The notes under the pieces were generated by a model. The model searched no databases. It was not told the origin of the DNA and was given only the letters and a program-made list of their open reading frames with translations. Source: an uncultured delta proteobacterium (GTDB taxonomy: Bacteria; Myxococcota_A; Polyangia; Haliangiales; Haliangiaceae). Taken from it: DNA of 64,000 nt. Positions 3,101-52,670 of the stretch are shown piece after piece (positions within the stretch are counted from its first letter, which is position 1; every line of letters begins with the position of its first letter). The position numbers and the translations under genes are program-made. The DNA lies in the NCBI GenBank assembly GCA_963743525.1, contig CAVUQH010000024.1:65763-129762 (forward strand). The letters are read 5' to 3'.

Positions 3101-4452
3101 AGGCAGCAGGCGGCGGGTCGATCACGCAGCCATCGTCCGGCGGGGTGCCGCACGGGGCGTTGGGGTCGGCCGAGGGATCGCCACAGTCCGGAGGAGGAGG
3201 CGTGGGATCGGGCCAGCAGATCGGATCGGTGGGGTCGCACGGTGGATCGGTGGGGCCACACCCGGCGGGATCACCATTGTCGTCGCAAGGCGGCGGCGGA
3301 GGCCAGCAGAAATCCGGGTCCGCGAGGCACGGGTCACACAGAGCCGGGTCCATCAGACAGGGATCGCAGTTGGGATCCGTCGCGTCGCAGGGCGGCGGCG
3401 GCGGCACGCAGTTGGGATCCGTCGGATCGCAGCAGCCGGAGCCGTCGGGGCCACACGGAGGCGGCACGCAGTTGGGATCGGTCGGGTCGCACGGGGGCGG
3501 CGGCGGCGGCGGCACGCAGTTGGGATCCGTCGGATCGCAGCAGAGAGAACCGTCGGGCCCGCACGGGTCGATGCAGTTGGGGTCGGTCGCCGGATCGCAG
3601 GGAGGAGGCGGCGGCACGCAGTTGGGATCGGTCGCCGGGTCGCACGGCGGCGGCGGCACGCAGTTCGGATCGGTCGGATCGCAGCAGCCGGAGCCGTCGG
3701 GGCCACACGGATCGACGCAGTTGGGATCGGTCGCCGGGTCGCACGGCGGCGGCGGCGGGGACGCAGTTCGGATCGGCCGGATCGCAGCAGCCGGAGCCGT
3801 CGGGGCCGCACGGATCGACGCAGTTGGGATCGGTCGCCGGGTCGCACGGCGGCGGCGGCGGCACGCAGTTGGGATCGGTCGCCGGGTCGCACGGAGGCGG
3901 CGGCACGCAGTTGGGATCGCTCGGATCGCAGCAGCCCGAACCGTCGGGGCCACACGGCGGCGGCGGCACGCAGTTGGGATCGAAGGTCGGGTCGCAGGGA
4001 GGCGGATCGCCGCCACCACAGCCGGGATCGGTGGACCCACCACCGCTGCCCGACGAGCCGTCGTTGCCGTCGCCACCCCAGTAGACGCCGTTGCCCAGGT
4101 CCCAGGCGCCCTGGCCGGCGCACACGTCGAAGGCGACGCGCCTGGCGCCCTGGCTGTTCTTGGTCACGAACGGATGAGCGCCGTCGGCCGTGACGACCTC
4201 GAGGCGGTACCCGGTGCCCTCGGGCACCGACAGCACATAGGAACCGTCGCCGCGCAGCGGGGCCTCGGCGATCACCTGATCGCCCTGGACCACGCGCACG
4301 CCAACGGGGCGCGAGCTGAAGCTGGAGGTGGCCAGACGCCCCGACAGCGTCTGAGTGGGTGGCGGGTCGGCGCACGCAGCGCACAGGGCCGCGGTACACA
4401 GCAGCGCACGCAGCGTGCTGGATCGCATCGCGGTCTTCATCGCGGTTCTCAT
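3081..4452 (-). CDS. Secreted cysteine/proline-rich repeat protein (signal peptide, beta-sandwich-like domain, then ~11 copies of CDP(A/T)DPNCVPPPP and CGPDGSGCCDP(S/T)DPNC, then a Cys-rich C-terminus). Requires a +1 frameshift near 3757-3761, so pseudogene or homopolymer sequencing error.
   Basis: ORFs 3334..4560 and 3081..4076 overlap and carry the same repeat in different frames. The first loses sense after ...CDPADPNCVP|AAAAVRPGDRSQ, and the second gains sense at ...SPPPPPCDPATDPNC. DNA at ~3757 reads ggcggggacgcag where sister repeats read ggcggcacgcag, an extra base in a G run. Likely start is MRTAMKTAMRSSTLRALLCTAALCAACA with RBS AGGGAGAGGA and ATG at 4450-4452. Confidence 0.7.
3390..4000. 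repeat. ~42-bp tandem DNA repeats (ggcggcacgcagttgggatcggtcgccgggtcgcacggcggc and variants) encoding the CDPxDPNCVPPPP protein repeats
   Basis: Direct reading of 3400-4000. More than 10 near-identical units. Related units also occur at ~2190-2300 inside gene 1919..3100. Confidence 0.85.
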
Positions 4453-4546
4453 TGGGTCGGTCCTCTCCCTGATTGGGGGTTGAGCAGGAAAGCGCGCGCG
4501 TCTATTGATGTAGTGCCCGCTCGCACCGGACCCTTCGCGACTTTTT

Positions 4547-5322
4547 TCAGATGCCGGCAAACTCCGCGAGATGTTGGTTGAAAAGTCGGAACCGCTCCGC
4601 CTGCATCATGTGCCCGGCGCGCGGGAGTGTGACCAGGCGCGCATCCCGAAGGTGGAGCTGCAGCGAGTCGATGGTGGCGTCGAAGTAACCGATCGACTGC
4701 TCGCCGGCGACCAGCAGCACCGGCGCCGTGACCGCCCCGAGCTCGCGGTAGCGCGGCCGGTAGCGCTGCAGCGCCAGGCAGTCGGCGCGAATGGCCCGCC
4801 ACTCGCCGGCGGCGCGCACCTGAAAGCGCGGCGGCATCCGATCATAGGCCGAGCCCAGGACCAGCTGCAGGAAGAAGGCGCCCCCGGCCTCACCACCGCG
4901 AGCGGCAACCAGCGCGTCGAACAGGCAGCCAAACGCCTGCGGCATCGCCGGCACGTCGTCGGCGCACGGCATCGGCGGCTCGCACAGCACCAGGCCGCGC
5001 ACCAGCGCCGGCCGCGTGCGCGCCAGCTCGAGCGCGACCACGGCGCCGAAGCTCGAGCCGCAGACCAGCACCGGTCCGCCGCCGAGCTGCTCTTCGATCA
5101 ATGTGGCCGCGTCGGCGGCGTGGTCCTCGACCCGATAGCCGGCCGGTGCCGGGGGCGCCGCACCGCTGCCGCGGCGGTCGTAGGTGACCAGCTCGAGCGA
5201 CGCCGCCAGCGGCGACTGCATGGTCCAGGTGGTGTGGTCGGCGGCGCTGCCGTGGATGAACAGCACCGCCGGTCCGGCGCCGCTGCGCCAGACGGTCAGC
5301 GGCGGACGACTCAGAGCCAGCC
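4547..5322 (-). CDS. Alpha/beta-fold hydrolase
   Basis: C-terminal ~255 aa of ORF 4547..6088: PAVLFIHGSAADHTTW ... VLVCGSSFGAVVALELA (nucleophile-elbow GxSxG context) ... PRAGHMMQAE. No in-frame ATG near the expected N-terminus; a non-ATG start close to the epimerase stop is assumed. Confidence 0.75.
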
Positions 5323-6320
5323 CTCCTGGCGATACCAGGCCCCGGTCTGCTGCAGCCGCTCGCCCAGGGGGGCCGCCGGCTGCCAGCCGAGCTGCTCCCG
5401 CGCCTTGTCGGTGCTGCAGATCCACGAGCCGGCGTTGGCCTCGATCATCTTGTCGTAGTTGACGATGCTCGGCTTGTCGCGCAGGCGCGCCAGCCCCTCG
5501 GCGATACCGCCGACCAGCTTGGACAGCGGCGCCGGCGTGGGCAGCACGCGCACCCGCTCGCGGCCGACCGCGGCCGCCAGCATCGGTCCCAGCTCGCGGA
5601 TGGTCGGCTGCTCGGTGGCGGCGGCGAAGTAGAGCCCCTGCCCCACCGGCGCGTCGGGCCCGGGCGCCGCCAGCCGCTCGCCGCGCTCGGCGGCGGCGAT
5701 GATGGCCGCGGCCAGGTCGAGCACGTGGACCATCGCCAGCCGCGCGCTGCCATCGCCGGGCACCGCGTGAACGCCGCGGGCGGCGGCGCGAAACAGCGGC
5801 AGCGACGCGCGGTCGCGCGCGCCGATGACCGCCGGCGGGCGGATGATCGTGATCGGCACCCGCCTGGCGTGCTCGCGCGCAGCCTCCTCGCCGCCCAGCT
5901 TGGACCGGCCGTAGCGGGACACCGGCGCCGGCGGATCGTCCTCGGTGCGCGGGCGGCCGTCGCCGCTGGGACCGGCGGCCGCGATCGACGACACGGTGAC
6001 CAGCACCGGCGGCGACTCGGCGGCGGCACAGGCTGCGGCGACCGCGCGCACGCCGTCGGCGTTGGTGGCCATGAAGTCGGCGTGCCACGGCTGCTTGAGC
6101 ATCGCCGCCAGGTGATAGACGACGTCGACGCCGGCGACCGGCGCTTCCATCGACGACGCGTCGGTGATGTCGCCGACCGCGAACGAACAGCCCAGCGCCT
6201 CGAGCGCGCTGCGATCGGAGGTCGCGCGCACCAGACAGACCACTTCGTGCCCCGCTTCGCGCAAGAGCTCGACCAGATACCGGCCGATGAAGCCGGTCGC
6301 CCCGGTGACCAGCGCGCGGG

Positions 6321-6324
<4 letters not shown>
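5311..6324 (-). CDS. NAD-dependent epimerase/dehydratase (SDR family)
   Basis: [21 protein letters not shown] Rossmann motif, 337 aa. GTG start at 6322-6324 overlaps the upstream TGA (GTGA). RBS GGGAGAGG. Confidence 0.88.
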
Positions 6325-21056: not shown

Positions 21057-21131
21057 TGCCCCGACACCGTTTGGTAGGCCCGGTTGCAGCTCCGGAGGCC
21101 GCCCCGGCCCCGTGATACCATCAGTTGGCCC

Positions 21132-21698
21132 ATGACCGCGTTCCTCAACGGGTGGGGCTTCACCGTGGCCGCGCTGGTGCTCATCAGCGTGGTCTTTGCC
21201 ATCGGCTTCTTCAGTCTCCGCGGCGAGCTGGCCTACGTGCGCCTGCTCACCGACTACCTCGGCACCGAGCTGGCTGGCGCCGGCGACGAGCCGGCCAAGC
21301 CGGCACCGGGCGCCAGCATCGCGCTGCAGGCGATCCGCGACGAGGCGACCGCCGTGATCACCGCGCGCGATCCGGCGTGGGCGGCCAAGCAGGTGCGCGG
21401 CTGGCTGATGCGCGTCCACCGGCTCGAGCCCGCCCTCGCCTTCTGGGTCGATTTCCTGCGCCAGCTGGGCCTGCTGTTCACCGTGGTCGGCCTGGGCATG
21501 TCGCTGTCGCTGGGCGACGCCAACGTCAGCGAGCTGCTCAAGCCGCTGGGCCTGGCCGTCTGGACCACCGTCGCCGGCCTCGCCTACAGCGTCTGGCTGA
21601 GCGGCCAGTTCACCATGAAGATGGCAGTCTGGGCCGACACCGCCGAGAAGAACATCGAGGCGTGGAACGCGCGCCGCGTGTCGCGCGAGGACGCGTGA
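21132..21698 (+). CDS. MotA/TolQ/ExbB-family proton-channel protein
   Basis: MTAFLNGWGFTVAALVLISVVFAIGFF...FLRQLGLLFTVVGLGMSLSL (TolQ/ExbB-like helix motif). Confidence 0.7.
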   Translation: MTAFLNGWGFTVAALVLISVVFAIGFFSLRGELAYVRLLTDYLGTELAGAGDEPAKPAPGASIALQAIRDEATAVITARDPAWAAKQVRGWLMRVHRLEPALAFWVDFLRQLGLLFTVVGLGMSLSLGDANVSELLKPLGLAVWTTVAGLAYSVWLSGQFTMKMAVWADTAEKNIEAWNARRVSREDA

Positions 21699-21702
21699 TG
21701 CC

Positions 21703-22326
21703 ATGCCGCGCAACCGTCCCATCCAGTACTCGTCGCTGACGTCGCTGCTCGACGTTTTGTTCATCCTGGTGTTCGCGTCGCTGATCCACGCGGCCAGCAA
21801 GGTCGAGGCGTCCCAGCGCGCGCCGCAGCAGAGCCCGCCGGTGGCCGCGGCCGAACTGCCCGACGCCGGCGTACCCGACGCCGCCCCGCCCGACGCCGTG
21901 GTGGCACCGGCGCCTCGCAGCGTCCGCCAGGCAGCAGCCGCCGCCGTCGCCCGCAGCGTCGACACCCGGGCCACGCAGATCGCCCACGTCTCGCCGACCG
22001 GCGTGTTGACCGCCGTCGAACCGGCCGGTCGCCCGTTGACCCTGGTCGGCGCGCCGCTGCTGCAGCGAGTCGACGATCCGGACGTCGGCCTCGTCTACCT
22101 CGGCGACGACAACCCCGCCCTGCGCATCTGCGCCATCGTCGCCGCCGCCCTCGACCGCACCGACCTGGCCCGCGATATCGTCGTCATCGTCCCCGATTCG
22201 TCGATCGATCGGCTGCCGGTGGCGCTGGTCGAAGGCATGCGCCGCGACCTCGAGCGCTGCGCCGCCGACCAGGGCGCCCTCGCCGTGCTGGTCGACCCCG
22301 CCAACCTCGACACCTTCAGCCCGTGA
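21703..22326 (+). CDS. ExbD/TolR-family biopolymer transport protein
   Basis: MPRNRPIQYSSLTSLLDVLFILVFASLIHAAS (ExbD/TolR N-terminal TM signature); ATG 5 nt after the upstream stop. Confidence 0.75.
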   Translation: MPRNRPIQYSSLTSLLDVLFILVFASLIHAASKVEASQRAPQQSPPVAAAELPDAGVPDAAPPDAVVAPAPRSVRQAAAAAVARSVDTRATQIAHVSPTGVLTAVEPAGRPLTLVGAPLLQRVDDPDVGLVYLGDDNPALRICAIVAAALDRTDLARDIVVIVPDSSIDRLPVALVEGMRRDLERCAADQGALAVLVDPANLDTFSP

Positions 22327-22333
22327 GTCCCCC

Positions 22334-22753
22334 ATGCCCAACGCCACATCGCCAAACCAACGAGAGCGCGCCGCCGGCCGCAAGCGCCTGGTCTTCTGGC
22401 TGATCCTTCTCGCCCTGGTCATCGCCGCGATCCTGTTCCTGCGCTGCCGCGGCTCCCTCGGCCTCGGCGGCAGCGGCGACGACACCTCGCGCGAGCAGAA
22501 GCCGACCGGCCAGCCCGCGACCCTCGCCGACACCCCCAGCCCGGCCGACGCTGCCCTGCCCCGCTGCCAGCTCCGCCTCGATGCCAGCGGCCTGACCATC
22601 GCTGGAACGCCCGGTGAAATCGCCGACGCCGTCGCCGCCTGCAAGGCGCCACGCGCCGCCGACCTGGTCGTCACCGGCGACGCCAACTTCGGCGCCGCCC
22701 AGGACCTGGAAGCCGCCCTCAAGACCGCCGGTATCGAGGTCTATCGCAAGTAG
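22334..22753 (+). CDS. ExbD/TolR-family biopolymer transport protein (second copy)
   Basis: RLVFWLILLALVIAAILFL TM; C-terminus ADLVVTGDANFGAAQDLEAALKTAGIEVY. Confidence 0.7.
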   Translation: MPNATSPNQRERAAGRKRLVFWLILLALVIAAILFLRCRGSLGLGGSGDDTSREQKPTGQPATLADTPSPADAALPRCQLRLDASGLTIAGTPGEIADAVAACKAPRAADLVVTGDANFGAAQDLEAALKTAGIEVYRK

Positions 22754-22848: not shown

Positions 22849-23006
<158 letters not shown>

Positions 23007-23361
23007 GTTGGCCCTGGTCAACTTGCCAGGGTGGCGGCCGTTGAACAGGTCGGAGCCATCGAACACTCCGCTCCAGAGGTCGCCCACGCAGTCGTCATCT
23101 GTGTTGCGGCTGGCAGGAATGCATCGCGCAGGCGCGTCCGGTCCTCGCCGACGATCAGCCGGTTGCGATCGAGTCGGGTTACGACCTCCGGCCTGGAACC
23201 TTCGTAACTGGGCCCGGGGTCCTTCGTCGTCCGGAGGTCGTCGGGTGATTCGCCTCCAATCTCCGCGCGCGCTGGCAAAGGCGAGATTGGCGAGTCGAAT
23301 TCGTCGAGACGGGAAGGGATCTTCCGCTGCTTCACCACGTACCATCAGGTGAGAGTCACCC

Positions 23362-25260
23362 GTGCGTCTGACCGACAAGCGCTATCCCACACCTGCCTCC
23401 AACGCGGACGAACCTGGCACCGAGGCCAGCGTTGCGCCAGGACGGCGGACTCGCACGCAAGCTCGCTACGGCGATGGTCAAAGCGCGATGCCGGTGCAGG
23501 CGAAGTCGGCTCCCGTGCAGATGAAAAAGGGGGGCGGCAAGCACGAACCGCTCGAGAAGGACGAACTGAAAGCGGAGGAGAACAAGGACAAGAAGGAGAA
23601 GGAGCACAAGGGGGGCCTCAAGGGGCGCAAAGAGACCGAGGCCGACCACGTCGTCACCTTGCTCACTGGAGTGCTCCAAGACCTCGAGAAGTCCAAGTCC
23701 CTCGTGTCGATGATTGGAGCTGCGCTCATCCGCACCACGATCAGCGTCATCGGGCTGGGTCAGGTCGCCGTCCATGTCGGCGACTGGAACGAATTCAGTG
23801 CGCTCATCAAGGGGTTGCTGGCGATTGGCGGTCCACGCTTGGTGCAAGACCTGATCGATCTGGAAAGGGAGACGCCGACAAGGGTCTTTACCAGGCAGGT
23901 CAAGAAGCGCTCACCCGAGTCAGTCGTCGCCTGGATGCTGGGACGAAAGCCCGGTCTCATCCCCGAGGGGGAGAAGTCGTTCAAGGACGTCAAGGAACAG
24001 GCGAAGAACTCCGCCAATCCGCTCCGCGCCAAACGCGCGCTGCAGAAGCTCAACGCGCTGCGCGCGGGCGACAAACACGTCCCCAAACGGCTGAACCGGC
24101 CCATCATCAAGTTGCTGGTCTGGGGCGTGGCCACTGCGATGAACAGCAGCGACGAGGGCAAGGAGGGCATCATCGGCATCCATCACGCGGAGAACGCCGC
24201 CAAAGCCCTCATCCACATGCCCCGATCCGCCTACGCACAGATCGTCACCCAGCTGGTCATGAGCGGCGATCCGAAGAACGCCAAGTCTTCGGCACACGTC
24301 GAGAGCATCCTGATCCTCAAGGCCGTGGCAGCTCGCCGCCACGAATTTACGCACGGCAAAGAGAGCGACGCAGGCAAAGAAGTCTCGGACTTTGCCGAAG
24401 AGATCCGCGGCAAGGACGCCGAGCAACTGAAGGAGGACACGTCCACTAGCGCCCACGGCGGCGGCGATGGACTGCAGCAGAAGTTCACGATGAGCTGCGG
24501 TCCCACTTCGATCCAGATCGTGCACGGCGAGTCGGATCCCGTGTTTGCGCTGAAGGTCAGCAAGGACAACAAGCACAACCTCAACTACAAGACCTCGACG
24601 GGCGAGCAGCAGAAGGACTACCTCAACCAGAAACATCTGCCGCGGCTGGTCGAGGCCGCCTGGAAACAATACGGGACCAAGATTCAGGCCCGTGCCAAGT
24701 CCCATCCCGCCGATCTTCCCAAGCTGATCGCCCTGGACAACTGGATCAAAGGTGCCGCGCACGACGCGAGCAAGCTCGCCGGCGGGAAAGCCTGGGCTCA
24801 CAGCGCCGGGTTCTCGGATGACATCCTCGGCGAGTTCAAGAAGTACTACCCGTTCCCCGAGCCGGGCTGGCAGAACAGCGACTTCCAGAACAAGGCAAAC
24901 GCAGAGGTCAAACACCCGGCCAACGCCAAGTTCGATGAGCGCGCGATCCCGCCCAAGTGGAAGTCCATCGCCGGCAAGATGCGACCCATCAGCACCATGA
25001 AGAAGCGGGACACCAACCGGTTGTATCGGGCGCTGTTCGACGGCCGGGACATCCCGATGGGAATCATGTGGTATGACGGTGGCGGTCACTTCATGGTGTT
25101 CACGGACTGCAAGACGAAGACGTCTGGTGGAAAGAAGGTCCGCTACTTCTTGCTCTCGGATCCGTGGGAGGGCAAGTCTGCCTGGATCAGCGAAGAGAAC
25201 GTCCTCAAGGGTGACGTCAGTCCGTTCGGCAAAGGCGCGATTGATTCGATCTATCTCTAA
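23362..25260 (+). CDS. Lys/Glu-rich 632-aa protein with C-terminal papain-fold-like Cys-His-Asp hydrolase domain (C39/transglutaminase-like); putative toxin/effector
   Basis: ...QQKFTMSCGPTSIQIVHGE (Cys379, resembles the C39 DCGxxCL motif) ... MWYDGGGHFMVFTDCK (His576) ... LLSDPWEG (Asp600). Lower GC than surroundings. Confidence 0.5.
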   Translation: MRLTDKRYPTPASNADEPGTEASVAPGRRTRTQARYGDGQSAMPVQAKSAPVQMKKGGGKHEPLEKDELKAEENKDKKEKEHKGGLKGRKETEADHVVTLLTGVLQDLEKSKSLVSMIGAALIRTTISVIGLGQVAVHVGDWNEFSALIKGLLAIGGPRLVQDLIDLERETPTRVFTRQVKKRSPESVVAWMLGRKPGLIPEGEKSFKDVKEQAKNSANPLRAKRALQKLNALRAGDKHVPKRLNRPIIKLLVWGVATAMNSSDEGKEGIIGIHHAENAAKALIHMPRSAYAQIVTQLVMSGDPKNAKSSAHVESILILKAVAARRHEFTHGKESDAGKEVSDFAEEIRGKDAEQLKEDTSTSAHGGGDGLQQKFTMSCGPTSIQIVHGESDPVFALKVSKDNKHNLNYKTSTGEQQKDYLNQKHLPRLVEAAWKQYGTKIQARAKSHPADLPKLIALDNWIKGAAHDASKLAGGKAWAHSAGFSDDILGEFKKYYPFPEPGWQNSDFQNKANAEVKHPANAKFDERAIPPKWKSIAGKMRPISTMKKRDTNRLYRALFDGRDIPMGIMWYDGGGHFMVFTDCKTKTSGGKKVRYFLLSDPWEGKSAWISEENVLKGDVSPFGKGAIDSIYL

Positions 25261-25273
25261 CGTTCCGGTGTCG

Positions 25274-25870
25274 ATGAGGGCCCACGCCATCTTGCTCGCG
25301 CTGGGGCTGATAGGGTCGCTGGCTGGCTCGACAGCTCTTCTGGGCTGCAAGGAGGCGACGAAGTCCCGCAACACCGATGATCCGAAGGTGAAGGCGAGCT
25401 CGAGCGATGGCGCCGTCGCCGCAGCTCCAGCCAAACCGAAGCCGAAGGCGAACAAGCCCATGACGATCCAAGTGCCGGTTACCGCCTCACACAAGACCTG
25501 CTACGATCTGCTCGAGAAAGACGCACCGACGTTGATCTCCGGGTTCAAGAAGGACGCGGTCGACCTGGCCAATGCTCCCGGAAAACCCTGGGAGCGGTTG
25601 GACAAGCTACTCGCCAGGGTCGACGAGCTCTGGGCTGCCTACCTCAATGGGGGTGGCAACCCGCGAGTGACCGAGTCGTCGTGGGTGTGCGCGGTCGGCG
25701 ATCTGGCCGAGGCTCTCGTCACCGCGAGCATCGACGAGCTCGCATCCGCGAGCGAGCCGGAGCGGAAAGAGCGGCTGGATGCCCTCGAGAAGATCGTCAA
25801 CGACCGTCTGCAGAACGCGCCAAACCACACGGGCATGTCGCTAGCGATCATGGCCGCGCGCCACAAATAG
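25274..25870 (+). CDS. Lipoprotein (possible cognate immunity protein)
   Basis: MRAHAILLALGLIGSLAGSTALLGCKE (lipobox LLGC), 198 aa, 11 nt after the upstream stop, lower GC. Confidence 0.65.
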   Translation: MRAHAILLALGLIGSLAGSTALLGCKEATKSRNTDDPKVKASSSDGAVAAAPAKPKPKANKPMTIQVPVTASHKTCYDLLEKDAPTLISGFKKDAVDLANAPGKPWERLDKLLARVDELWAAYLNGGGNPRVTESSWVCAVGDLAEALVTASIDELASASEPERKERLDALEKIVNDRLQNAPNHTGMSLAIMAARHK

Positions 25871-26074
25871 CGCCGCCCCCCCCGCCCGAGCGTGCGGTCC
25901 CGAGCCGGGGTCTTCGTTCCCCGACCGCCGGCCGATGCGAGACCGCCGCGGCGCCGTGCACCGCGAATTTGCGATTCGAAGAGAAGCTGCCCCCGTCGAA
26001 GGACGCATCCGAAGTGCATGACGCCACGCTCGATGAGTGCTCAGGGTCCGCGCGGAGCGCCCTTCGACAGCGCT

Positions 26075-34438: not shown

Positions 34439-37400
34439 ATGGGGGAGCCGCCGGGCAAGGGTGGGGGTAGCGGGAAGCAGCCGACCACGACGGCGATCGA
34501 CGCCGGCAGCGCACCCACCCTCCCCGGCACCATGCCGACCGAGCCCGGCAGCGAACCCACCATCCCCGGCACCATGCCGACCGAGCCCGGCAGCGCGACC
34601 ACCATCGCCAGTGTCGAGTCCGAGCTGCAGAGCCGACCGCGCCGGCGCAGGTCGCGACCGGCAAGCAACTATCGACGCGGCGACCACATCGATCGCTTCG
34701 TCGTACTCGAGGTGCTCGGCGCCGGCGGCATGGCGGTCGTGCTCTCGGCCTACGATCCGAGCCTGGATCGCCGCGTCGCGATCAAGCTCATGCGCTCCGA
34801 GCTGTGGCGCGCTGCCGGCGTGCGCGGACGTGATCGACTGTTGCGCGAAGCACAGGCGATGGCACGGCTGTCCCATCCGAACGTGGTCACCGTGCACGAG
34901 GTCGGCGCGATCGGCGACGAGGTGTTCATCGCGATGGAGCACGTCGGCGACCGGACGCTGCGCGACCGCATCCGCGAGCTTCGCAGCGCATCACCGTTTT
35001 CCTGGCGGGCCATCGTCGAGCCGTTCTTGCAGGCCGGCCGCGGCCTCGCCGCCGCGCATGACGCCGGCCTGGTGCATCGCGACTTCAAGGCCGAGAACGT
35101 GTTGGTGGGCGACGATGGCCGCGTTCGGGTAACCGACTTCGGTCTCGTGAGCACCGCAGGCGCCGCCGACTCGTCCGGCGACGAGCTCGCCAGCCACGAC
35201 GACCTCGCCGACCTGGCCACGCCCACACCGATCCCGATGTCCGCGACGATCACGCGGACCGGCGCTCTCCTGGGAACTCCGGCGTACATGGCGCCAGAGC
35301 AGACCCGCCACGGCACCGTCAACGGCCGCACCGACCAGTTCTCCTTCTGCGTATCGCTGTGGGAGGCGCTCTACGGCGAGCGGCCGTTCGCCGGGTCGCG
35401 TGTTGGCGAGGTGCGCGAGGAGATCGCCGCCGGGCGTCTCCGCGAGCCACCGACCGAGGCGCGCAGCAAAGTACCGCCGTGGATTCACGAAGCGCTGCTG
35501 CGAGGGCTCTCGCACGATCCGGGTCAGCGCTGGCCGACGATGAACGCGCTGCTCGCGCGCCTGGCGAGCGATCCCGATGCCGCGCGCCGCCAGCGGCGGC
35601 TGGCGCTCCTCGTCGGAGCCGTAATCGTCGCGCTGGCCGCCAGCGTGGTGGTCGCCATCGCACGACGACCGGGCGTCACCGCGCCGGTGTGTGGTGGCGC
35701 GAACGAGGAGATTGCCGCGGTCTGGAACGACACGATCAGGCATCAGATCGGCGAACGATTCGAACGAACGGGTCGCTCCTATGCCGCGGCTACGTTCGAC
35801 CGTGCCGCCCGGCGACTCGACGCATACGCAGATGACTGGGTACGAATGCGCACCGAGGCGTGCAAGGCAACCAACGTGCATCACCGGCAATCGGAGACCG
35901 TGCTCGATCTTCGCATGCGTTGCCTGGATCGCCGTCGGGCGGCACTGGCCGCTACCACCGAGTTGTGGGCGAGCGACGCTTCCGGCCAGACCGTCGATCG
36001 GGCCCTCGATTCACTCGCAGCGCTGCCCGCGCTCGACCGCTGCGCCGATCTGGACGCCTTGACCGCCGCAGTGCCGCCGCCAGAGTCGCCGAAGGCGCAG
36101 CGAACCGCCGAGGATCTGGCGAAGCAGCTCGATCACCTCGATGCCCTCGCCGGTGCGGGTCGGTTCGCCGACGCCTTGCCGGCGGCCAGGGACGTGTCGG
36201 CGCGCGCTCGTCGGCTCGGCTACGCCCCGGTGCTGGCGCGCGCGCTTTACGTCGCGGGCACGCTCGAACACGAGCTCGGTGACGACAAAGCGGCCGAGAC
36301 GACGTTGCGCGAGGCAATCGAGGTCGCGGCGGAGGCACGCGACGACGATCGCGCGGCGCACGCGTGGATCGCGCTCGGGTCGGCGCTGTCCGGTCAAGGG
36401 CGAGACGAAGATGCGCTCGCGCAGCGCACCGGAATGCAGGCGTTCGTGACGCGCGCCGGTGGCAACGAGCTGCTCCGTGCGGCGATGTGGAGCCAGCTCG
36501 GGACCACGGCGTGGAACCTCGGCCGCTACCGCGAGGCCCAGGCTCTCCACGAGCGCGCGCTCTCCGCGCGCGAGAAGTCGCTCGGCGCGAACGCCCCGGA
36601 GGTGGCCGAGTCCCTCGAGGCGCTCGGCAACGTGTTCGCCGACGAGGGTCGCTACGACGACGCGCGCACGCGACTCGAACGCGCGGTGGCGATCCGCGAG
36701 CAAGCGCTGGGCCCGCGCCACCCGAGAACCGCGAGTGCGCGCAACGACCTCGGCATGCTGCTTCGCGACCTCGGCAAGCCCCGCGAGGCCCTGGCGAACT
36801 TCCAGCTCGCGCTCGCGGTGTACGAAGAGATGCTCGGCACCGAGCACGCCGACGTCGGTCGGATCCTGAACAACATCGGCCTGGCCTATTCGGACATGAA
36901 CGACAATGCCGCCGCCGAGCCGGTGTTCCGGCGAGCCCTCGCGATCAAGGAGAAGGCCCTCGGCCCGACCCATCCGAGCACCGCCCTCACGCTCGGCAAC
37001 CTCGGCGCGGTCCTCGTCGAGAGCGGCAAGGCGGCCGAGGCGCTTCCGCTGCTCGAACGGGTCCTCGAGATCCAGCGCACGTCTCTCGCACCGGATCACC
37101 CGAACCTGGCCCTGGCCCACCACACGCTCGGTGCAGCGCTGCGGCTCGATGGCAAATGCCAGCAGGCGATCCCGCACTTCCTCACCGCGAAGAAGATCTG
37201 GGAGACCAAGCTCGGCAAGGATCATCTCCAGACCTCCAGCGCATACTTCGACCTCGGCGTCTGCGATACGGATCTCGGTCACCCGCTGAAGGCGCTGCCA
37301 CTGCTCGAGCGAGCACTCGCCATTCGTGACAAGGCCGGTCGCGCCGGAGCTGCGGCCGAAGCCCGGTGGCAGATCGGACGCGCGCTGTGGGAGTCGGGCA

Positions 37401-37528
37401 AGGATCGCGCACGCGGGCTCGGCCTCGTCCGCGAGGCGCGCATCAAGCTCGCCGGGCTCCGTCAAGCCCGTGAGATCGATGCCTGGCTCGCCGCGCACGA
37501 GCTGCTGGCTCGCAGCATGGCGCGGTGA
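34439..37528 (+). CDS. Ser/Thr protein kinase with Pro/Thr-rich N-terminal extension, one TM segment and extensive C-terminal TPR repeats
   Basis: LGAGGMAVVLSAYD...AIKLM...HRDFKAENVLV...DFGL...GTPAYMAPEQ; TM LALLVGAVIVALAASVVVAIA; many TPR-like units. 1029 aa. Confidence 0.9.
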   Translation: MGEPPGKGGGSGKQPTTTAIDAGSAPTLPGTMPTEPGSEPTIPGTMPTEPGSATTIASVESELQSRPRRRRSRPASNYRRGDHIDRFVVLEVLGAGGMAVVLSAYDPSLDRRVAIKLMRSELWRAAGVRGRDRLLREAQAMARLSHPNVVTVHEVGAIGDEVFIAMEHVGDRTLRDRIRELRSASPFSWRAIVEPFLQAGRGLAAAHDAGLVHRDFKAENVLVGDDGRVRVTDFGLVSTAGAADSSGDELASHDDLADLATPTPIPMSATITRTGALLGTPAYMAPEQTRHGTVNGRTDQFSFCVSLWEALYGERPFAGSRVGEVREEIAAGRLREPPTEARSKVPPWIHEALLRGLSHDPGQRWPTMNALLARLASDPDAARRQRRLALLVGAVIVALAASVVVAIARRPGVTAPVCGGANEEIAAVWNDTIRHQIGERFERTGRSYAAATFDRAARRLDAYADDWVRMRTEACKATNVHHRQSETVLDLRMRCLDRRRAALAATTELWASDASGQTVDRALDSLAALPALDRCADLDALTAAVPPPESPKAQRTAEDLAKQLDHLDALAGAGRFADALPAARDVSARARRLGYAPVLARALYVAGTLEHELGDDKAAETTLREAIEVAAEARDDDRAAHAWIALGSALSGQGRDEDALAQRTGMQAFVTRAGGNELLRAAMWSQLGTTAWNLGRYREAQALHERALSAREKSLGANAPEVAESLEALGNVFADEGRYDDARTRLERAVAIREQALGPRHPRTASARNDLGMLLRDLGKPREALANFQLALAVYEEMLGTEHADVGRILNNIGLAYSDMNDNAAAEPVFRRALAIKEKALGPTHPSTALTLGNLGAVLVESGKAAEALPLLERVLEIQRTSLAPDHPNLALAHHTLGAALRLDGKCQQAIPHFLTAKKIWETKLGKDHLQTSSAYFDLGVCDTDLGHPLKALPLLERALAIRDKAGRAGAAAEARWQIGRALWESGKDRARGLGLVREARIKLAGLRQAREIDAWLAAHELLARSMAR

Positions 37529-43263: not shown

Positions 43264-43604
43264 GGTTGCTTCACGCGAATCGGGATGCGGAAGGTCAGCG
43301 GCGAGGCCTGGTGGCCAAACGTGGTACCGCGGGCGACTGCGAGCAGGCATTCGCCCAGCTGCTGGTGCTCGGCATCGGCGGGCACCAGCTCGGCGGCGGT
43401 CACGGCGCCGCCGGCATCGACGTGGAAGCGGATGGCCAGCTCTTTGGCGGCAGCGGCGGCCGCGGGGTAGCGGTCGAAGCAGCGGGTGACCAGCGCGTGG
43501 CGGCTGCGGAAACGCGCCGTGAGGCTCTCGGCGGTGGTCGTCTTGTGCGGCGTGGTCGCCGGCGGCGACGGCGATGCGGGCGCGGGGTCAGGCGACTCGT
43601 TCAA
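43260..43604 (-). CDS. Small Pro/Ser/Thr-rich protein with TonB-C-terminal-like segment
   Basis: TTG start overlaps the kinase stop (TTGA). ...AAKELAIRFHVDAGGAVTAAELVPADAEHQQLGECLLAVARGTTF resembles the TonB_C fold pattern. Confidence 0.4.
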   Translation of the reverse strand: MNESPDPAPASPSPPATTPHKTTTAESLTARFRSRHALVTRCFDRYPAAAAAAKELAIRFHVDAGGAVTAAELVPADAEHQQLGECLLAVARGTTFGHQASPLTFRIPIRVKQP

Positions 43605-45040
43605 CGGGTGCGGCCGGGTCGTCCGCAGACGGCGGAGGATCGCCGGCCGGGTTCATGGTCACGTCGCCGCGCACCATCACCACGGTCGGCTCGGCCGTCG
43701 AACTCGCGGCCGAGGTGGGCGCGCGTGATGGCCACGGCGGCGCCACCGGCAATGGCGATGGCGATGGCCAGGGGCCACAGCGACCGGCGCCGCGCTGGCT
43801 GGGTCGCGCCGATCGTCTCGGCCGGCGGGTTCGGCTCGACGACCTCGCGCGCGTCGAGCAGGCGCGTCTCCGCCGTGTGCACCTCGGCCGGCGCCGGATC
43901 GTCCACGCGGGTCGCGCCGGTCGCGTCGGCCAGCTTGCCGCTGCGCAGTGCGTCCTGCAGCTGGGTGTTCTCCAGCTCGCTGGGCGACAGCGGCAGGACG
44001 ATGCGGCGCGGCAACTCGCCCAGATCGCCGTAGCGCGACCACGCGTCTTCGCGCGCCTGCAGGCTGTCGGTGCCGAGGAGATCGGGCAGCCGCGGGTCGT
44101 GGAAGTCGGCCGCGATGTTCTCGCGAAAGCGGTCGTCGGCATCGGCGGCTTCGGGGTAGGCCTCGCCCAGCGCCTCGGCGAACGCCCCCGCGCTGGGATA
44201 GCGTCCCTCCGGGTGCTTGCACAGCCCCTTGTGGATGACGTTGGCCAGGCGGACCGACACGTCGTCGCGCACCGAGCGGATCGGATCGGGATCGTGGCGA
44301 AGCGCGCGCGCCGCGGTCTGCACCGCGTCGGCGGCCGCGAACGGGTTCTTTCCGGCGAGCAGCTGGTAGAGGGCCACCGCCGCGCTGTAGACGTCCGAGG
44401 CTGGCGACGGCGTCGTCTTGCCGAACAGCTCCGGCGCCATGTACGCGAAGGTGCCCTTCAGCGTGGTGTCGCCGGTTGACGTGTCGGTGACCTCGGTGTT
44501 GGTGCGGGCGACGCCGAAGTCGGCCAGCTTGACCAACCCCTGCACGTCGACCAGGACGTTGGACGGCTTGACGTCGCGGTGGACGATGCCCAGCGGCGAG
44601 CCCTGCGAGTCGCGCAGCGTGTGTGCGTAGTGCAGCGCCTCGAGCATTCGCTGCATGACGTAGAGCGCCAGCTCGACCGGCAGGTTGCCGCGCGACTTGC
44701 GCACGAAGCGGCTCCACTGCTGCAACGTGTAGCCGTGCACGTAGTCGAGCACCATCACGTAGTCGCCGTCCTCCTCGGCGAAGTCAACGATGCTGACGAT
44801 GCCCGGGTGGCGCAGGCTGGACAGGATGCGCGCCTCGCGCGCGAACAGCTGATCGGCCAGCTCACCGCCCGCGCGCAGCGAACGCTTGATGACCACCGGC
44901 TTGACGAAGCCGGCGGCGCCCTCGGCGCGGGCCAGGTACACGGTTCCCATGCCGCCAGAGGCCAACGCCCTGACGACTCGGTAGTGGCCCAGCACCATCT
45001 GGCCGAGCTCCTGGGTGTGACCCGCTTTGGCTGCGCTCAT
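43601..45040 (-). CDS. Ser/Thr protein kinase with C-terminal TM segment
   Basis: LGHYRVVRALASGGMGTVYLA...VVIKR...HRDVKPSNVLV...DFGVAR...GTFAYMAPE; TM LWPLAIAIAIAGGAAVAI. Confidence 0.9.
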   Translation of the reverse strand: MSAAKAGHTQELGQMVLGHYRVVRALASGGMGTVYLARAEGAAGFVKPVVIKRSLRAGGELADQLFAREARILSSLRHPGIVSIVDFAEEDGDYVMVLDYVHGYTLQQWSRFVRKSRGNLPVELALYVMQRMLEALHYAHTLRDSQGSPLGIVHRDVKPSNVLVDVQGLVKLADFGVARTNTEVTDTSTGDTTLKGTFAYMAPELFGKTTPSPASDVYSAAVALYQLLAGKNPFAAADAVQTAARALRHDPDPIRSVRDDVSVRLANVIHKGLCKHPEGRYPSAGAFAEALGEAYPEAADADDRFRENIAADFHDPRLPDLLGTDSLQAREDAWSRYGDLGELPRRIVLPLSPSELENTQLQDALRSGKLADATGATRVDDPAPAEVHTAETRLLDAREVVEPNPPAETIGATQPARRRSLWPLAIAIAIAGGAAVAITRAHLGREFDGRADRGDGARRRDHEPGRRSSAVCGRPGRTR

Positions 45041-46569
45041 CGCTTCGAAGGAGACCGTCTCACATAGTAATGGACGGCGCCCCCCTGGCGCACGATCTTC
45101 ACCGCGATGGCGCGGCGCCCGGCGGGCAGCGCGACCTGCGAGTGAAAGCGGTAATGCCCGTCCAGCGGCACGTCGACGCCATCGATGGACACCCGCGATC
45201 CAACTGTAGCCAAACCGCGCACCTCGACGCCCCCCGGACCAAAGGTCGCGGCGTCGAGCTGCGCCACCGGCGCGGCGTTGTCGAAATCGAGCACGACGCG
45301 GGTCTCCGGCGAGCGCGCGCCACCCGGGATCGCCATGCGCACGCGATAGCTGCCCTCGGCCAGCTTGCCCGAGCTCGAGACGTATCGCGGCTTGCTCGAG
45401 TCGTGGCGCTGCACGCGACCGTGCGCATCGGTGATGGTCAGCTCGTACTTCGGCGCCGATGGGGCGTCGGGCCAGACGAAGGTGATCGTCGGCTTGCGGT
45501 TCTGGTACAGCAGCCGGTACGTGCGCCCGTCGATGTCAACCGAGTTGGCCGGGGCGCGGGTCTTGACCCGCCGCTGGCCGGCGTCGCGCAGCACGCGAAT
45601 CGTCCCGCGCGACCGACTGTTGTCGGCAGCGGGCACCAGCGCGCCGTCGGTCTGACAGTAGACGCGGTAGCGATTGCGCCCGACCGGAAGCGTGACCGGC
45701 ACGTTCTCCTGACCGCGGTAGTAGTGCCGCCCGCGGCCGTGGGCGACCTGCACCACTGCCACGCCATCGCACAGGCCGGAGACCGGGATACGAACGTGCG
45801 CGGGCGGCCGGGCGACGTGCACGGTCGAGGTCTCCCCCGCGGGCAGCGCGATGTCGATCGCGGTCGGCGGCGCGCTGATGGGCACCTTCTTGCCGCGCAG
45901 CGTCGGCCCGCGTTCGTCGTCGGTCGTCGGATCAGTCGCCGGCTGGGACGCGGCGTCGATCGGCGCGACGGCCACCGCCTGGGCGGCGTCTTGCACGCCC
46001 GCATCCGCGGTGCTGCTCGGCGCTTGCACGCGCACGTCGCCACCGCTGTTGACGTCCACCTGATCGCCGGCGGCCAGCGCCACTGGCTCGGCGCCCTCGC
46101 GTTCGATACGGGCGGTGCCGACGACGACCTCGAGGTGGGTGTCGCGACCGCGGCGCTGCAAGCGGACCCGAGATCCGGCGCCCAGCCGGGCCGGGCCGCT
46201 GGCCGTGTCGACCACCAGGGCGGCATCGCCGGTCTCGATCTCGGCCTCGCCGGTGGCCAGGGTGATCGACTGCAGACCATCGGCCTGCCCGAAACGAACC
46301 AGCGAGGTCGCGCCCATCGCCAGCACACCGCCGCCGCGGATCATGCGCAGGCGCGCCGACGATGCCGCGCCGGTGCGCACGCCGTCCCCGCGGTGGTAGC
46401 GCGCGCCCGGTTGATTGGCCTGCCAGGCCTCGGGCTCGGCGCGAGGCGCGCCCTCGACCTGCCCGTTGGCGTCGGTCAGCTCGGCCAGGCTGGGCTCGGA
46501 CCGGCCGCCACAAGCGGCCGTCACCAGGGTCAGTGCGAAGCCCACTGCCAGCCGGCGCTGCGACCTCAA
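45037..46569 (-). CDS. FecR-domain lipoprotein
   Basis: TTG start with RBS AGGAACGG: (M)RSQRRLAVGFALTLVTAACGG; FecR-like ITLATGEAEIETGDAALVVDTASGPARLGAGSRVRLQRRGRDTHLEVVVGTARIEREGAEPVALAAGDQVDV. Confidence 0.65.
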   Translation of the reverse strand: MRSQRRLAVGFALTLVTAACGGRSEPSLAELTDANGQVEGAPRAEPEAWQANQPGARYHRGDGVRTGAASSARLRMIRGGGVLAMGATSLVRFGQADGLQSITLATGEAEIETGDAALVVDTASGPARLGAGSRVRLQRRGRDTHLEVVVGTARIEREGAEPVALAAGDQVDVNSGGDVRVQAPSSTADAGVQDAAQAVAVAPIDAASQPATDPTTDDERGPTLRGKKVPISAPPTAIDIALPAGETSTVHVARPPAHVRIPVSGLCDGVAVVQVAHGRGRHYYRGQENVPVTLPVGRNRYRVYCQTDGALVPAADNSRSRGTIRVLRDAGQRRVKTRAPANSVDIDGRTYRLLYQNRKPTITFVWPDAPSAPKYELTITDAHGRVQRHDSSKPRYVSSSGKLAEGSYRVRMAIPGGARSPETRVVLDFDNAAPVAQLDAATFGPGGVEVRGLATVGSRVSIDGVDVPLDGHYRFHSQVALPAGRRAIAVKIVRQGGAVHYYVRRSPSKR

Positions 46570-48120: not shown

Positions 48121-50220
48121 ATGGGACGTACTTTCACGCTTTGTTGTTCGCTGGCGATGTTCGCCTTCGCCTGCTCCTCGAATCCCACACCGACCCCGGT
48201 TCAGCCCACGCCCCCGGCCACGGCTCCGGACGCGGCGCCCAGCGGGCCCCCGGTGGTCGAGAAGTCGCTCGACCAGGTCGGGCTGTCGGAGGCCGCGCTG
48301 GATCGCAGTGCCGATCCCTGTGACGACTTCTACCAGTTCGCCTGTGGCGGCTGGCTGGCCAACACCGAGATCCCGGCGGACCGGACCAGCTGGAGCCGCG
48401 GCTTCAGCGAGATCCACGATCGCAACCAGGACACCCTGCACACGATCCTCGAGGCCGCCGCCGCCGGCGGCAAGGACCCGGATCCCGGCACCAAGAAGCT
48501 GGGCGACTTCTACGGCTCGTGCATGGACGAGGCCGCGATCGAAAAGGCCGGGCTGTCGGCGATCGAGCCGTGGCTGAAGCAGGCGCGCAAGGTGCGCAAC
48601 AAGAAGCAGATCGCGGCGCTGGTCACCGACCTCCAGGCCCACGGCGTCGGTGTCCTGTTCGGCTTCTTCGTCAACCAGGACATGAAGGACCCGACCAAGA
48701 TGGTCGCCCAGGTGTGGCAGGGCGGCCTGGGCCTTCCCGATCGCGACTACTACCTGAAGGACGACGACAAGACCAAGGCGATCCGCACCGCCTACACCGA
48801 GCACGTGGCCAAGATGCTGCAGCTCGCCGGCGCCAAGCCGGCCGCCGCCAAGCGCGGCGCTGCCAACGTGCTGGCGTTCGAGACCGAGCTGGCCAAAGCG
48901 TCCAAGCCCCGGGTCGAGATGCGCGATCCCAAGGGCCTCGACAACCGCCTCGACCTGGCCGGCGTCGAGAAGGCGGCGCCAAACTTCGACTGGAAGTCGT
49001 TCTTCGAGGGCATGGGCAAGCCCGGCTGGACCGCGATCAACGTGTTGACCCCCAAGTTCCTCGACCAGATCAACACGATGTTGACCAAGACCAAGCCGGC
49101 GGAGTGGCGCAGCTACCTCGAGTGGCACATTCTCGACAGCGAGGCGGGCCGCCTGCCCAAGGCGTTCGTCAACGAGAACTTCGCCATGACCAAGCAGCTC
49201 ACCGGTCAGGAGAAGCTGCGCGACCGGTGGAAGCGCTGCGTCGCCGCCACCGACAACGCCCTGCCCGACCTGCTGGGACCGGCCTTCGTCAAGGCCAAGT
49301 TCAGCGGCGACGCCAAGGCTGCGGCCCTGAACATGGTCCACGCGATCAGCGGCGCCTTCGGTCAGTCGCTGCTCAGCGAGGCGTGGATGGACGCCGCCAC
49401 GCGCAAGCTGGCCGAGCAGAAGCTGAGCATGATGGCCTACCTGATCGGCTATCCCGACAAGTGGAAGACCTACGACTTCACCGTCAGCCGCGACAACTAC
49501 GCCGCCAACGCCATCGCCGCCGACCACTTCCAGGTGGCCTACGACATGAGCAAGCTGGGCAAGCCGGTCGACCGCACCGAGTGGAGCATGAGCGCGCCCA
49601 CGGTCAACGCCTACTACAACCCCAGCATGAACCACATGGTCTTCCCGGCCGGCATCCTGCAGCCGCCGTTCTACGATCCCAAGGCGTCGGCCGCGGTCAA
49701 CCTGGGCGGCATGGGCATGATCGTCGGCCACGAGCTGACCCACGGCTTCGACGACCAGGGCTCGCAGTTCGACGGCAACGGCGCGCTGAAGAACTGGTGG
49801 ACGCCGGCGGTGGCCAAGAGCTTCGACAGCAAGAAGCAGTGCGTGATCGATCAGTACGACGCCTACGAGCCGCTGCCGGACGTGCACCTCAACGGCAAGC
49901 TGACCCTGGGCGAGAACATCGCCGACATGGGCGGCGTCAAGATGGCGTTCGAGGCCTACCGGGCCATGCGCAAGGACGCCAAGGAGAAGGTGCTGGCCGG
50001 CGGCTTCACCGAGGACCAGCAGTACTTCCTGGCGGTGGGCCAGGCCTGGTGCACCAAGATCCGCCCGCAGATGCAGCGCATGTACATCAACGTCAACCCG
50101 CACTCGCCGGCGCGGTTCCGCGTCGACGGCTCGCTGTCCAACCTGCCCGCCTTCAGCGAGGCGTTCCAGTGCAAGAAGGGCACGAAGATGAACCGCGAGA
50201 ACATGTGCACGGTCTGGTAG
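48121..50220 (+). CDS. M13-family zinc metallopeptidase (neprilysin/PepO-like), lipoprotein
   Basis: MGRTFTLCCSLAMFAFACSS; NAYYNP; VGHELTHGFD (HExxH); GENIADMGG. 699 aa. Confidence 0.93.
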   Translation: MGRTFTLCCSLAMFAFACSSNPTPTPVQPTPPATAPDAAPSGPPVVEKSLDQVGLSEAALDRSADPCDDFYQFACGGWLANTEIPADRTSWSRGFSEIHDRNQDTLHTILEAAAAGGKDPDPGTKKLGDFYGSCMDEAAIEKAGLSAIEPWLKQARKVRNKKQIAALVTDLQAHGVGVLFGFFVNQDMKDPTKMVAQVWQGGLGLPDRDYYLKDDDKTKAIRTAYTEHVAKMLQLAGAKPAAAKRGAANVLAFETELAKASKPRVEMRDPKGLDNRLDLAGVEKAAPNFDWKSFFEGMGKPGWTAINVLTPKFLDQINTMLTKTKPAEWRSYLEWHILDSEAGRLPKAFVNENFAMTKQLTGQEKLRDRWKRCVAATDNALPDLLGPAFVKAKFSGDAKAAALNMVHAISGAFGQSLLSEAWMDAATRKLAEQKLSMMAYLIGYPDKWKTYDFTVSRDNYAANAIAADHFQVAYDMSKLGKPVDRTEWSMSAPTVNAYYNPSMNHMVFPAGILQPPFYDPKASAAVNLGGMGMIVGHELTHGFDDQGSQFDGNGALKNWWTPAVAKSFDSKKQCVIDQYDAYEPLPDVHLNGKLTLGENIADMGGVKMAFEAYRAMRKDAKEKVLAGGFTEDQQYFLAVGQAWCTKIRPQMQRMYINVNPHSPARFRVDGSLSNLPAFSEAFQCKKGTKMNRENMCTVW

Positions 50221-50289
50221 ACCAGACCTCCGACTGATCCCGACATCACCGGGGCCGCAGCCGAGAGGCGCGGCCCCGTTTCTTTCGGC

Positions 50290-52602: not shown

Positions 52603-52670
52603 CGCCGGCATCCTACACCCGCACGACCGTGCACGAGATGCGACGCATTCTCGCGGGTCGCGTCTGTCGC

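Follow-up and report, generated by a model that had tools for sequence, protein, structure and literature searches.

The locus and its two genes

The window examined here is a 64,000-nucleotide stretch of forward-strand DNA from an uncultured delta proteobacterium of the Haliangiaceae (NCBI GenBank assembly GCA_963743525.1, contig CAVUQH010000024.1, positions 65,763 to 129,762). Calling of open reading frames (ORFs) placed two adjacent genes on its plus strand (Table 1), which likely form an orphan polymorphic toxin/immunity cassette whose toxin is a cysteine peptidase of clan CA type. The proposal builds on four computational observations, namely the modeled fold, the conservation of the catalytic residues, fusions of the module to various carriers and a gene pairing that recurs across loci. 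Homology searches identify both genes as real, because homologues of the toxin were recovered at E = 1e-74 to 1e-145 and the partner matches homologues encoded downstream of other toxins in pairwise BLASTP at E = 2e-30 and 2e-16.

The toxin gene has two candidate starts. The ATG at 23488 is the start used in public gene calls (P0001, and likewise the contig L031 described below). A better Shine-Dalgarno-like sequence, AGGTGA, precedes the GTG at 23362 and ends ~9 nt upstream of it. Residues are numbered here from the ATG, and adding 42 gives the numbering of the longer, 632 amino acid (aa) version. A previous reading made from the letters alone, hereafter the sequence-only reading, had used the GTG and pointed to the motifs FTMSCGPTS (Cys379), GGGHFMVF (His576) and LSDPWEG (Asp600), all of which lie at exactly these residues of the 632-aa ORF. 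Its intergenic gap of 11 nt needs correction to 13 nt, counted from the toxin TAA (25258-25260) to the partner ATG.

Table 1. Features of the candidate cassette, its upstream boundary and partner genes at related loci. Window positions count from the first nucleotide of the window; loci with the prefix L are separate sequences.
Feature	Position	Strand	Description
Predicted toxin gene	23488..25260	+	590 aa from ATG; alternative GTG 23362 gives 632 aa; ORF, identical public protein P0001
N-terminal leader, aa 1-167	23488..23988	+	K/E/G-rich and disordered, then low-confidence helices; unconserved in homologues; delivery domains or motifs of relatives sit here
Alpha-helical domain, aa 168-330	23989..24477	+	Conserved; predicted local distance difference test (pLDDT) 86-95; alignment A1
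Papain-like (clan CA-like) cysteine-peptidase domain, aa 331-590	24478..25257	+	
Q331-x5-C337 (QKFTMSC)	24478..24498	+	Predicted oxyanion-hole Gln and nucleophile Cys; codons verified
His534 (His576 in 632-aa version)	25087..25089	+	Predicted general base; strand 533-546, GGGHFMVF
D558-P-W-E-G562 (Asp558 is Asp600 in 632-aa version)	25159..25173	+	Predicted third triad residue; D558 codon 25159-61
Partner gene, family A	25274..25870	+	198 aa; predicted immunity lipoprotein
Lipoprotein signal peptide	25274..25348	+	Lipobox L-L-G-C25 (MRAHAILLALGLIGSLAGSTALLG-C25); by inspection
Flexible tether, aa 26-61 (~36 residues)	25349..25456	+	Pro/Lys/Ala/Ser-rich; alignments A2, A3
All-alpha domain, aa 62-198 (~137 aa)	25457..25867	+	Conserved
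tRNA-Gly(GCC)	22849..22922	+	Upstream cassette boundary; context, outside the system; ARAGORN
Terminator-like site	22929..22961	+	Perfect 10-bp GC-rich hairpin (ACGGCCGGTT/AACCGGCCGT, loop AGAC), then T-rich run; sequence reading
Family A partner with lipoprotein signal, examples	L005:1911-2432; L030:2918-3496; L032:3040-3123		
Family A partner without signal, examples	L002:11944-12378; L004:11805-12227		
Family B genes	L027:12369-12794; L008:11219-11647; L007:2685-3182; L033:2377-2808		

The predicted toxin belongs to a large family with a two-domain module

The AlphaFold2 model of the toxin, computed with an alignment, reached a predicted template modeling score of 0.73 and separates a variable leader from a well-folded remainder. 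The pLDDT is below 50 for residues 1-114, low for 115-165 and mostly above 85 for ~170-590. Residues 1-110 contain 15% K and 10% E, and the Lys-rich, low-complexity N-terminus described by the sequence-only reading is confirmed. That reading had limited the C-terminal domain to ~250 aa. The conserved unit spans ~430 aa and includes both the helical domain and the peptidase domain. The helical domain carries the motifs NPxRA, RLxxxIIxLLVWGVA, EGIIGIxHA and VESxLILKAVAAR. Among 165 family representatives, its residues N177, R201, G227, K278 and R283 are conserved at 86-99%, with N177, R201, K278 and R283 as near-invariant polar positions. The helical domain was never found apart from the peptidase domain and is therefore regarded as part of the functional unit. 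In the model, the peptidase domain starts with the Cys helix (338-349), continues with a helical insertion of ~120-150 aa and ends in the antiparallel sheet (522-586) that bears the His and Asp.

A word-index search recovered 23 homologues at 38-55% identity, all aligned from residue ~168 to the C-terminus and differing in their N-termini; the closest is 54-55% identical. A search with a hidden Markov model (HMM) of 1.84 billion cluster representatives retrieved 537 at E <=1e-3 and 154 at E <=1e-30. The representatives are clusters at 50% identity, so the family comprises at least 537 of them. Judging from these searches, the toxin module is a large unnamed family spread over several bacterial phyla. 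More distant relatives (~30% identity) occur in Archangium and in metagenome-assembled genomes (MAGs) of Myxococcota, and none were found in viral contigs. The large protein has no match in Pfam (E up to 1), NCBIfam, PADLOC or PHROGs. Sequence searches of the PDB returned no match with the single protein and none at E up to 10 with a 24-sequence profile (A1). A search with the N-terminal 170 aa gave no match either, but the query itself was also not recovered, which makes this result uninformative.

The predicted peptidase domain is papain-like

Conservation was counted on the 165 representatives aligned to the family HMM, with counts out of 163 sequences for the Gln/Cys region and out of 126 for the His/Asp region. 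The predicted catalytic residues stand out clearly. Q331 is conserved in 159/163 and C337 in 157/163, and shortly after these follow D350 (160/163) and P351 (163/163). H534 is retained in 121 of the 126 sequences. D558 is found in 118 (a further 4 have E and 3 have N), together with P559 (116/126), W560 (88/126) and G562 (125/126). Overall conservation of the Gln, Cys, His and Asp is 94-98%, with 96% for the Cys and the His and 94% for the Asp. The sequence-only reading had made conservation of the Cys, His and Asp among homologues a test of its proposal, and the proposal withstands it, with the Gln six residues before the Cys as an addition. C337 (codon 24496-98) lies immediately before the helix 338-349 in the model, and D558 ends the strand 549-558, which is the next strand after that of His534. 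In papain, the oxyanion-hole Gln and the nucleophile are Q19 and C25 with the same spacing as Q331-x5-C337. The DPWxG motif resembles N175-S-W-G of papain and NPWG of calpain.

Structural comparison of the model points in the same direction. Papain-like cysteine peptidases take all of the first 20 places, led by Staphopain C, then streptopain, interpain, PCAT1, PeiR and calpains, with cathepsins and AvrRpt2 at lower ranks. A Foldseek search against the PDB returned nothing significant. As modeled, the domain has the papain-like alpha+beta fold of clan CA and the predicted catalytic residues occupy the places expected for this clan, with the Cys at the N-terminus of a helix, then the His and the Asp on strands, and a Gln ahead of the Cys. 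The sequence-only reading had offered papain-superfamily/C39-like and transglutaminase-like hydrolases as candidates. The papain-like assignment is borne out by the structure search. Membership of the C39 profile is not, and a transglutaminase-like enzyme finds neither a profile match (Transglut_core, Transglut_prok) nor the best fold match.

Relatives carry the module on injection-system proteins

The same module is fused to different N-terminal carriers in relatives of the toxin. The eCIS_core/DUF4157 domain precedes it in 3/24 close homologues and in 3/76 distant members (P0002, P0012, P0014, P0045, P0049 and P0050). Fusions among distant members involve eCIS_core, eCIS_core with LysM, or a full VgrG spike. 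The VgrG fusion (P0062, locus L027; 1/76 distant members) has the module at the VgrG C-terminus, and the island around it also encodes another VgrG and a protein of DUF4123, a type VI secretion system (T6SS) adaptor family. Genes of the partner families B and A described below follow the VgrG fusion. LysM, PG_binding_1 or PG_binding_3 domains are present in 9/76 distant members, and in Archangium minus the module ends a protein of 1516 aa. A hydrophobic signal peptide was found in 0/165 members, whose N-termini are of low complexity. N-terminal DUF4157 combined with a C-terminal toxin is a marker of toxins of extracellular contractile injection systems (eCIS) (Geller et al., PMC8213781). For eCIS cargo, the described layout is a disordered N-terminus for loading, DUF4157 in some cases and a C-terminal effector domain (bioRxiv 10.64898/2026.05.27.728243).

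Many homologues also share the N-terminal motif LQRxAGNxAV(Q)R(M)L ahead of the variable region or of eCIS_core (P0007-P0024; L002, L004, L006 and L013-L015), and a strict pattern for it matches 14/165 representatives. PGKRTLTEGL takes its place in P0004 and in the reading frame that precedes the annotated start of P0002. Both motifs may be system-specific loading signals. In the leader of the window toxin, read from the 590-aa start, Kyte-Doolittle values add up to -86.8 across the first 50 aa, residues 6-21 carry a charge of +3 and none of the first 8 residues is aromatic. Its hydrophilicity and positive charge are compatible with the qualitative description of eCIS signals (PMC11297309).

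The predicted toxin is paired with a conserved partner family

The partner gene begins with a lipoprotein signal and continues through a tether into an all-helical domain. Alignments A2 and A3 show that the tether is missing from cytoplasmic homologues of the partner. In the helical domain, C76 and C139 are nearly invariant and D143 is invariant. The +2 residue after the lipidated Cys25 is Lys (25349-25351), and Lys at this position is an inner-membrane retention signal in Myxococcus. If this applies here, the immunity domain would be held on the periplasmic face of the inner membrane by the ~36-residue tether. The partner has no match in Pfam, NCBIfam, PADLOC or PHROGs, and a PDB search with its profile (A3) found nothing meaningful. 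A match to ATP19 (E 0.042, below the cut-off) was dismissed as signal-peptide noise.

A word-index search with the lipoprotein found only one copy, 99% identical. The genes directly downstream of three toxin homologues align with it at 28-36% identity and keep the two Cys. With an HMM and jackhmmer run over six-frame ORFs of fetched loci, this family, here called family A, was located directly downstream of the toxin in 21 loci that range from ~41% to 73% GC. Among them are one MAG each of Solirubrobacteraceae and Acidobacteria, besides many metagenome contigs. In the six loci for which genes were called, 3-36 nt separate toxin and partner. Searching other genomes for homologous pairs and their neighborhoods, as the sequence-only reading had recommended, thus recovered both the pairing and relatives with the module on eCIS_core/DUF4157 and VgrG. 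A C-terminal module shared among different carriers and a small cognate gene that lies directly downstream and appears to be co-inherited are the features of a polymorphic toxin.

The partners differ in their predicted compartment. Family A proteins with a lipoprotein-type signal occur in the window, L005, L007, L030 and L032, and probably in L001 and L027. A signal is lacking in L002/3, L004/11/12, L006, L013-L017, L020, L021, L028 and L029. Partners without a signal mostly accompany toxins with an N-terminal LQRxxGNxAV-type motif (L020 and L029 not included). Lipoprotein partners accompany toxins without this motif, whose leaders are plain or contain DUF4157, LysM or VgrG. Another small protein, family B, is unrelated to family A, has ~141 aa and no signal peptide, and also occurs downstream of toxin homologues. 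Family B follows the toxin in L008 and L033 and is found together with family A in L007 and L027. The window has family A only. The joint presence of both families suggests, from gene order, two accessory or immunity proteins for one toxin.

Genomic context and composition

The hairpin downstream of the tRNA gene is probably the tRNA terminator and would insulate the toxin operon from upstream transcription. If so, the operon needs its own promoter within 22962-23360. No sigma-70-like promoter was found in the region upstream of the toxin. This ~400 nt stretch has 65% GC and contains only overlapping minus-strand ORF fragments (22860-23378 and 23018-23338). Altogether, ~400-530 nt without a convincing gene separate the tRNA and hairpin from the large ORF. 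The stretch 22962-23360 could be a promoter region or the decayed remnant of a gene from an insertion event.

The GC content of the window is ~70% and drops to 62-63% across 23000-26000, with 60.7% in the toxin gene and 64.0% in the partner gene. GC at third codon positions (GC3) is 0.84 and 0.82, respectively, compared with 0.89-0.96 in housekeeping genes of the window. The description of both genes as compositionally foreign is therefore weak and holds only as far as GC and GC3 are lower than in housekeeping genes. However, the hybrid histidine kinase next to the pair and the Ser/Thr kinases have the same GC3 (0.81-0.85), and the drop in GC falls mostly on codon positions 1 and 2, reflecting the amino-acid composition of Lys-rich proteins. 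As for the island that had been proposed, the cassette does follow tRNA-Gly(GCC), yet neither an integrase nor a direct repeat derived from the tRNA is present, and the search for an att-like repeat of the tRNA 3' end gave only short chance repeats. An integrative-island model was rejected on these grounds. Horizontal acquisition of a two-gene cassette beside a tRNA is plausible, and the label of a genomic island is weak.

The neighboring genes are core genes or typical regulators. They encode GyrA, an aminotransferase, ATP synthase subunit a, MoaC and GlmS, as well as a PAS-histidine kinase-receiver protein, several Ser/Thr kinases, an M13 peptidase, an ABC transporter and a CLC channel. The PAS-histidine kinase-receiver hybrid is located at 26215-28062. 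The four Ser/Thr kinase genes are at 28358-32314, 34367-37528, 43601-45535 and 56640-57782, of which one contains AAA_16 and another long TPR arrays. So many kinases at ~70% GC suggest a myxobacterium-like genome, as do the more distant relatives in Archangium and Myxococcota MAGs. Three consecutive plus-strand ORFs of 204, 207 and 139 aa that lie just ahead of the tRNA (21084-22753) have no Pfam match and are probably real genes given their very high GC3 of 0.89-0.95. An independent short-read assembly contains the cassette as a contig of 2645 bp with only these two genes aboard (L031, Logan ERR11594398). Its 198-aa partner is identical to that of the window and a 590-aa gene is called upstream. 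The breaks on both sides of the cassette in L031 may reflect border repeats or differences in coverage.

A proposed mode of action and the points against it

From the fold, the fusions and the gene pairing we infer toxicity, neutralization by the partner, a delivery route, a compartment and a class of substrate. In the predicted active site, Cys337 would act as the nucleophile and His534 as the base, with Asp558 orienting the His and Gln331 forming the oxyanion hole. The toxin would be exported as cargo of a contractile injection system (CIS), either eCIS or T6SS, encoded elsewhere in the genome, and once in the target cell would hydrolyze a peptide bond or an amide bond. By analogy with the fusions in relatives, we give such delivery slightly less than an even chance. 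The lipoprotein would remain tethered in the periplasm, where it might bind and neutralize toxin reaching the cell's own envelope or that of a sibling. The chances that the toxin of this organism acts in the periplasm appear evenly balanced, and the case for it is that the immunity protein is an exported, tethered lipoprotein. The toxin might meet its target or its entry route there, possibly peptidoglycan or an envelope protein. An envelope target is indicated because some relatives are fused to peptidoglycan-binding domains and the immunity protein is predicted to be periplasmic. Cytoplasmic partners at other loci point to neutralization before export, or to a target that is also present in the cytoplasm. 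A speculative way to reconcile both is the peptidoglycan stem peptide, which occurs in precursors as well as in the mature wall.

Several observations weigh against parts of this proposal. The His strand has a second conserved Asp, D540 (25105-25107; 112/126). We assign the role of third triad residue to D558 because of the strand topology and the DPWxG motif; D540, six residues along the His strand, is probably too distant to pair with His534. Many partner homologues lack a signal peptide, so a periplasmic site of action cannot be general. The sequence-only reading was accurate on the lipoprotein and its downstream position typical of periplasmic immunity genes, but a periplasmic location does not extend to all relatives. 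As that reading had also noted, no secretion-system marker lies nearby. A Pfam scan of 39 window ORFs, with stretches such as 3121-6321 and 50220-52671 falling outside it, found no CIS, T6SS, PAAR, Rhs or DUF4157, and no eCIS sheath, tube, baseplate or AAA+ loader genes. The window toxin itself has no DUF4157, VgrG, PAAR or Rhs and none of the LQRxxGNxAV or GKRTLTE-type motifs of its relatives. Its delivery route is consequently deduced from relatives alone. Finally, no CIS gene is adjacent to the toxin in three homologue loci examined with 10-kb flanks. Since CIS genes are missing beside both the window copy and these three, the toxin family seems to occur often in orphan cassettes.

Alternative explanations

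The strongest alternative, to which we give about one chance in four, concerns the chemistry. The same fold could serve a deamidase, a transglutaminase, an acyltransferase or a peptidoglycan amidase rather than a protease that cuts proteins.

It seems improbable that the toxin is an effector aimed at eukaryotes, be they prey or hosts (amoebae, fungi or nematodes, for example), and that the small protein serves it as chaperone or adaptor instead of providing immunity. An exported lipoprotein cannot chaperone a client without a signal peptide. The strict co-inheritance of toxin and partner across phyla is an immunity signature, and the T6SS island L027 includes a lipoprotein-type partner.

Slightly more improbable still is that the pair is no weapon at all. 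The toxin could be a housekeeping or developmental envelope peptidase with a dedicated lipoprotein inhibitor, similar to staphopain and staphostatin. In favor of this, the model matches Staphopain C best, and staphopains share a transcript with an inhibitor specific to them. In addition, the surroundings of the cassette include core genes (for GyrA, ATP synthase subunit a, MoaC and GlmS), and some relatives have peptidoglycan-binding domains. However, none of the 165 members has a signal peptide, leaving no ordinary route to the envelope, and being fused to VgrG or eCIS_core is characteristic of effectors that are injected. Word-index and pattern scans gave a few dozen copies scattered across phyla and from 41% to 73% GC. 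For a housekeeping gene, the closest homologue is distant (only 54-55% identical) and the GC content is below that of the surrounding genome. An intracellular toxin-antitoxin or anti-phage abortive-infection module would fit the two-gene operon and the many cytoplasmic partners, but we consider it highly improbable given the missing matches in PADLOC and PHROGs, the lack of relatives in viral contigs, the exported partner of the window and a large toxin with a disordered leader and relatives with CIS-type fusions.

Relationship to known systems

Functionally, the proposed toxin/immunity cassette is closest to Cpe1/Cpi1 (Escherichia coli; T6SS and contact-dependent growth inhibition, CDI) and StbD-CT/StbI (CdiA-like, Citrobacter rodentium), both of C39 type. 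Papain-like/C39 peptidase toxins with immunity proteins are established as T6SS and CDI weapons (PMC12136450; bioRxiv 10.64898/2026.05.07.723447). The fold, the order of the triad and the toxin-immunity logic are alike. However, there is no detectable sequence similarity, with Pfam C39 unmatched at E up to 1 and no PDB chain matched at E up to 10. The peptidase domain here has ~260 aa with a large helical insert, compared with ~140 aa in C39-type toxins, and the Cys and His are 197 residues apart compared with 75 in StbD-CT and ~75-80 in the C39-type family as a whole. The predicted immunity protein is an all-alpha lipoprotein, whereas StbI is built of beta-sheet. The targets of Cpe1 and StbD, GyrB and ParE, are cytoplasmic, and enzymes of this family cut at Gly-Gly motifs in GyrB/ParE or in leader peptides. 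By profile, domain size, Cys-His spacing and immunity fold, the modeled toxin and its partner thus appear to fall outside Peptidase C39 and the Cpe1/StbD-CT family.

In architecture, relatives of the window toxin equal eCIS-associated toxins (EATs) such as EAT14 (DUF4157-LysM-transglutaminase-like), with a disordered leader, eCIS_core, sometimes LysM and a C-terminal Cys-His-Asp enzyme. The window toxin has a very hydrophilic disordered leader but no DUF4157, and none of the 39 window ORFs scanned is an eCIS gene. Identity with EAT14 was rejected because the catalytic domain of EAT14 is Transglut_prok with the order Cys-Asp-His, and no test that was run found homology. Staphopain (C47) aligns structurally at 12% identity and has no relation at the sequence level. 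Staphopains are Sec-secreted zymogens with a prodomain, whereas the window toxin has no signal peptide. Staphostatins are beta-barrels and the partner here is helical. The Tae/Tai families of T6SS effectors that act as peptidoglycan amidases offer a further comparison. Tae enzymes are likewise Cys-His enzymes of the papain superfamily without a signal peptide, are delivered by a contractile machine and have immunity proteins that are encoded by adjacent genes and are periplasmic, in many cases as lipoproteins. Relatives of the window toxin include members with peptidoglycan-binding domains and one VgrG fusion. In contrast to Tae, there is no NlpC/P60 or CHAP profile match, the module is ~3x larger and many partners in the family are cytoplasmic.

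Implications for toxin exchange and delivery

In the broadest reading, the cassette would be the first described member of a large family of cysteine-peptidase toxins with two domains, employed by both eCIS and T6SS in at least four phyla. Such toxins would act on the envelope (peptidoglycan stem peptides or their precursors, or an envelope protein) and be matched by two unrelated immunity families placed according to compartment. Family A would be a periplasmic lipoprotein or cytoplasmic depending on the lineage, family B would be cytoplasmic, and some loci would have both. We regard this reading as less likely than not.

That bacteria fight one another with papain-like peptidase toxins is a recent finding, made with Cpe1 and StbD-CT, which cleave GyrB and ParE. 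The cassette described here represents a separate and much larger module of at least 537 clusters at 50% identity, with no relative in Pfam, NCBIfam or the PDB and with a predicted immunity family of its own. What is new is a large unnamed family of predicted toxin modules together with a predicted immunity family. The kind of system is known, and the finding is not a new kind of biology. Three delivery contexts meet in the family, namely fusions to eCIS_core, a fusion to VgrG and orphan cassettes. This makes it a manageable system for asking how one toxin module moves between injection machines, and why an immunity protein switches between periplasm and cytoplasm. Two new profile families become available for annotating toxin and immunity genes. 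The module is also a candidate effector domain, possibly together with leader sequences, for engineered CIS delivery.

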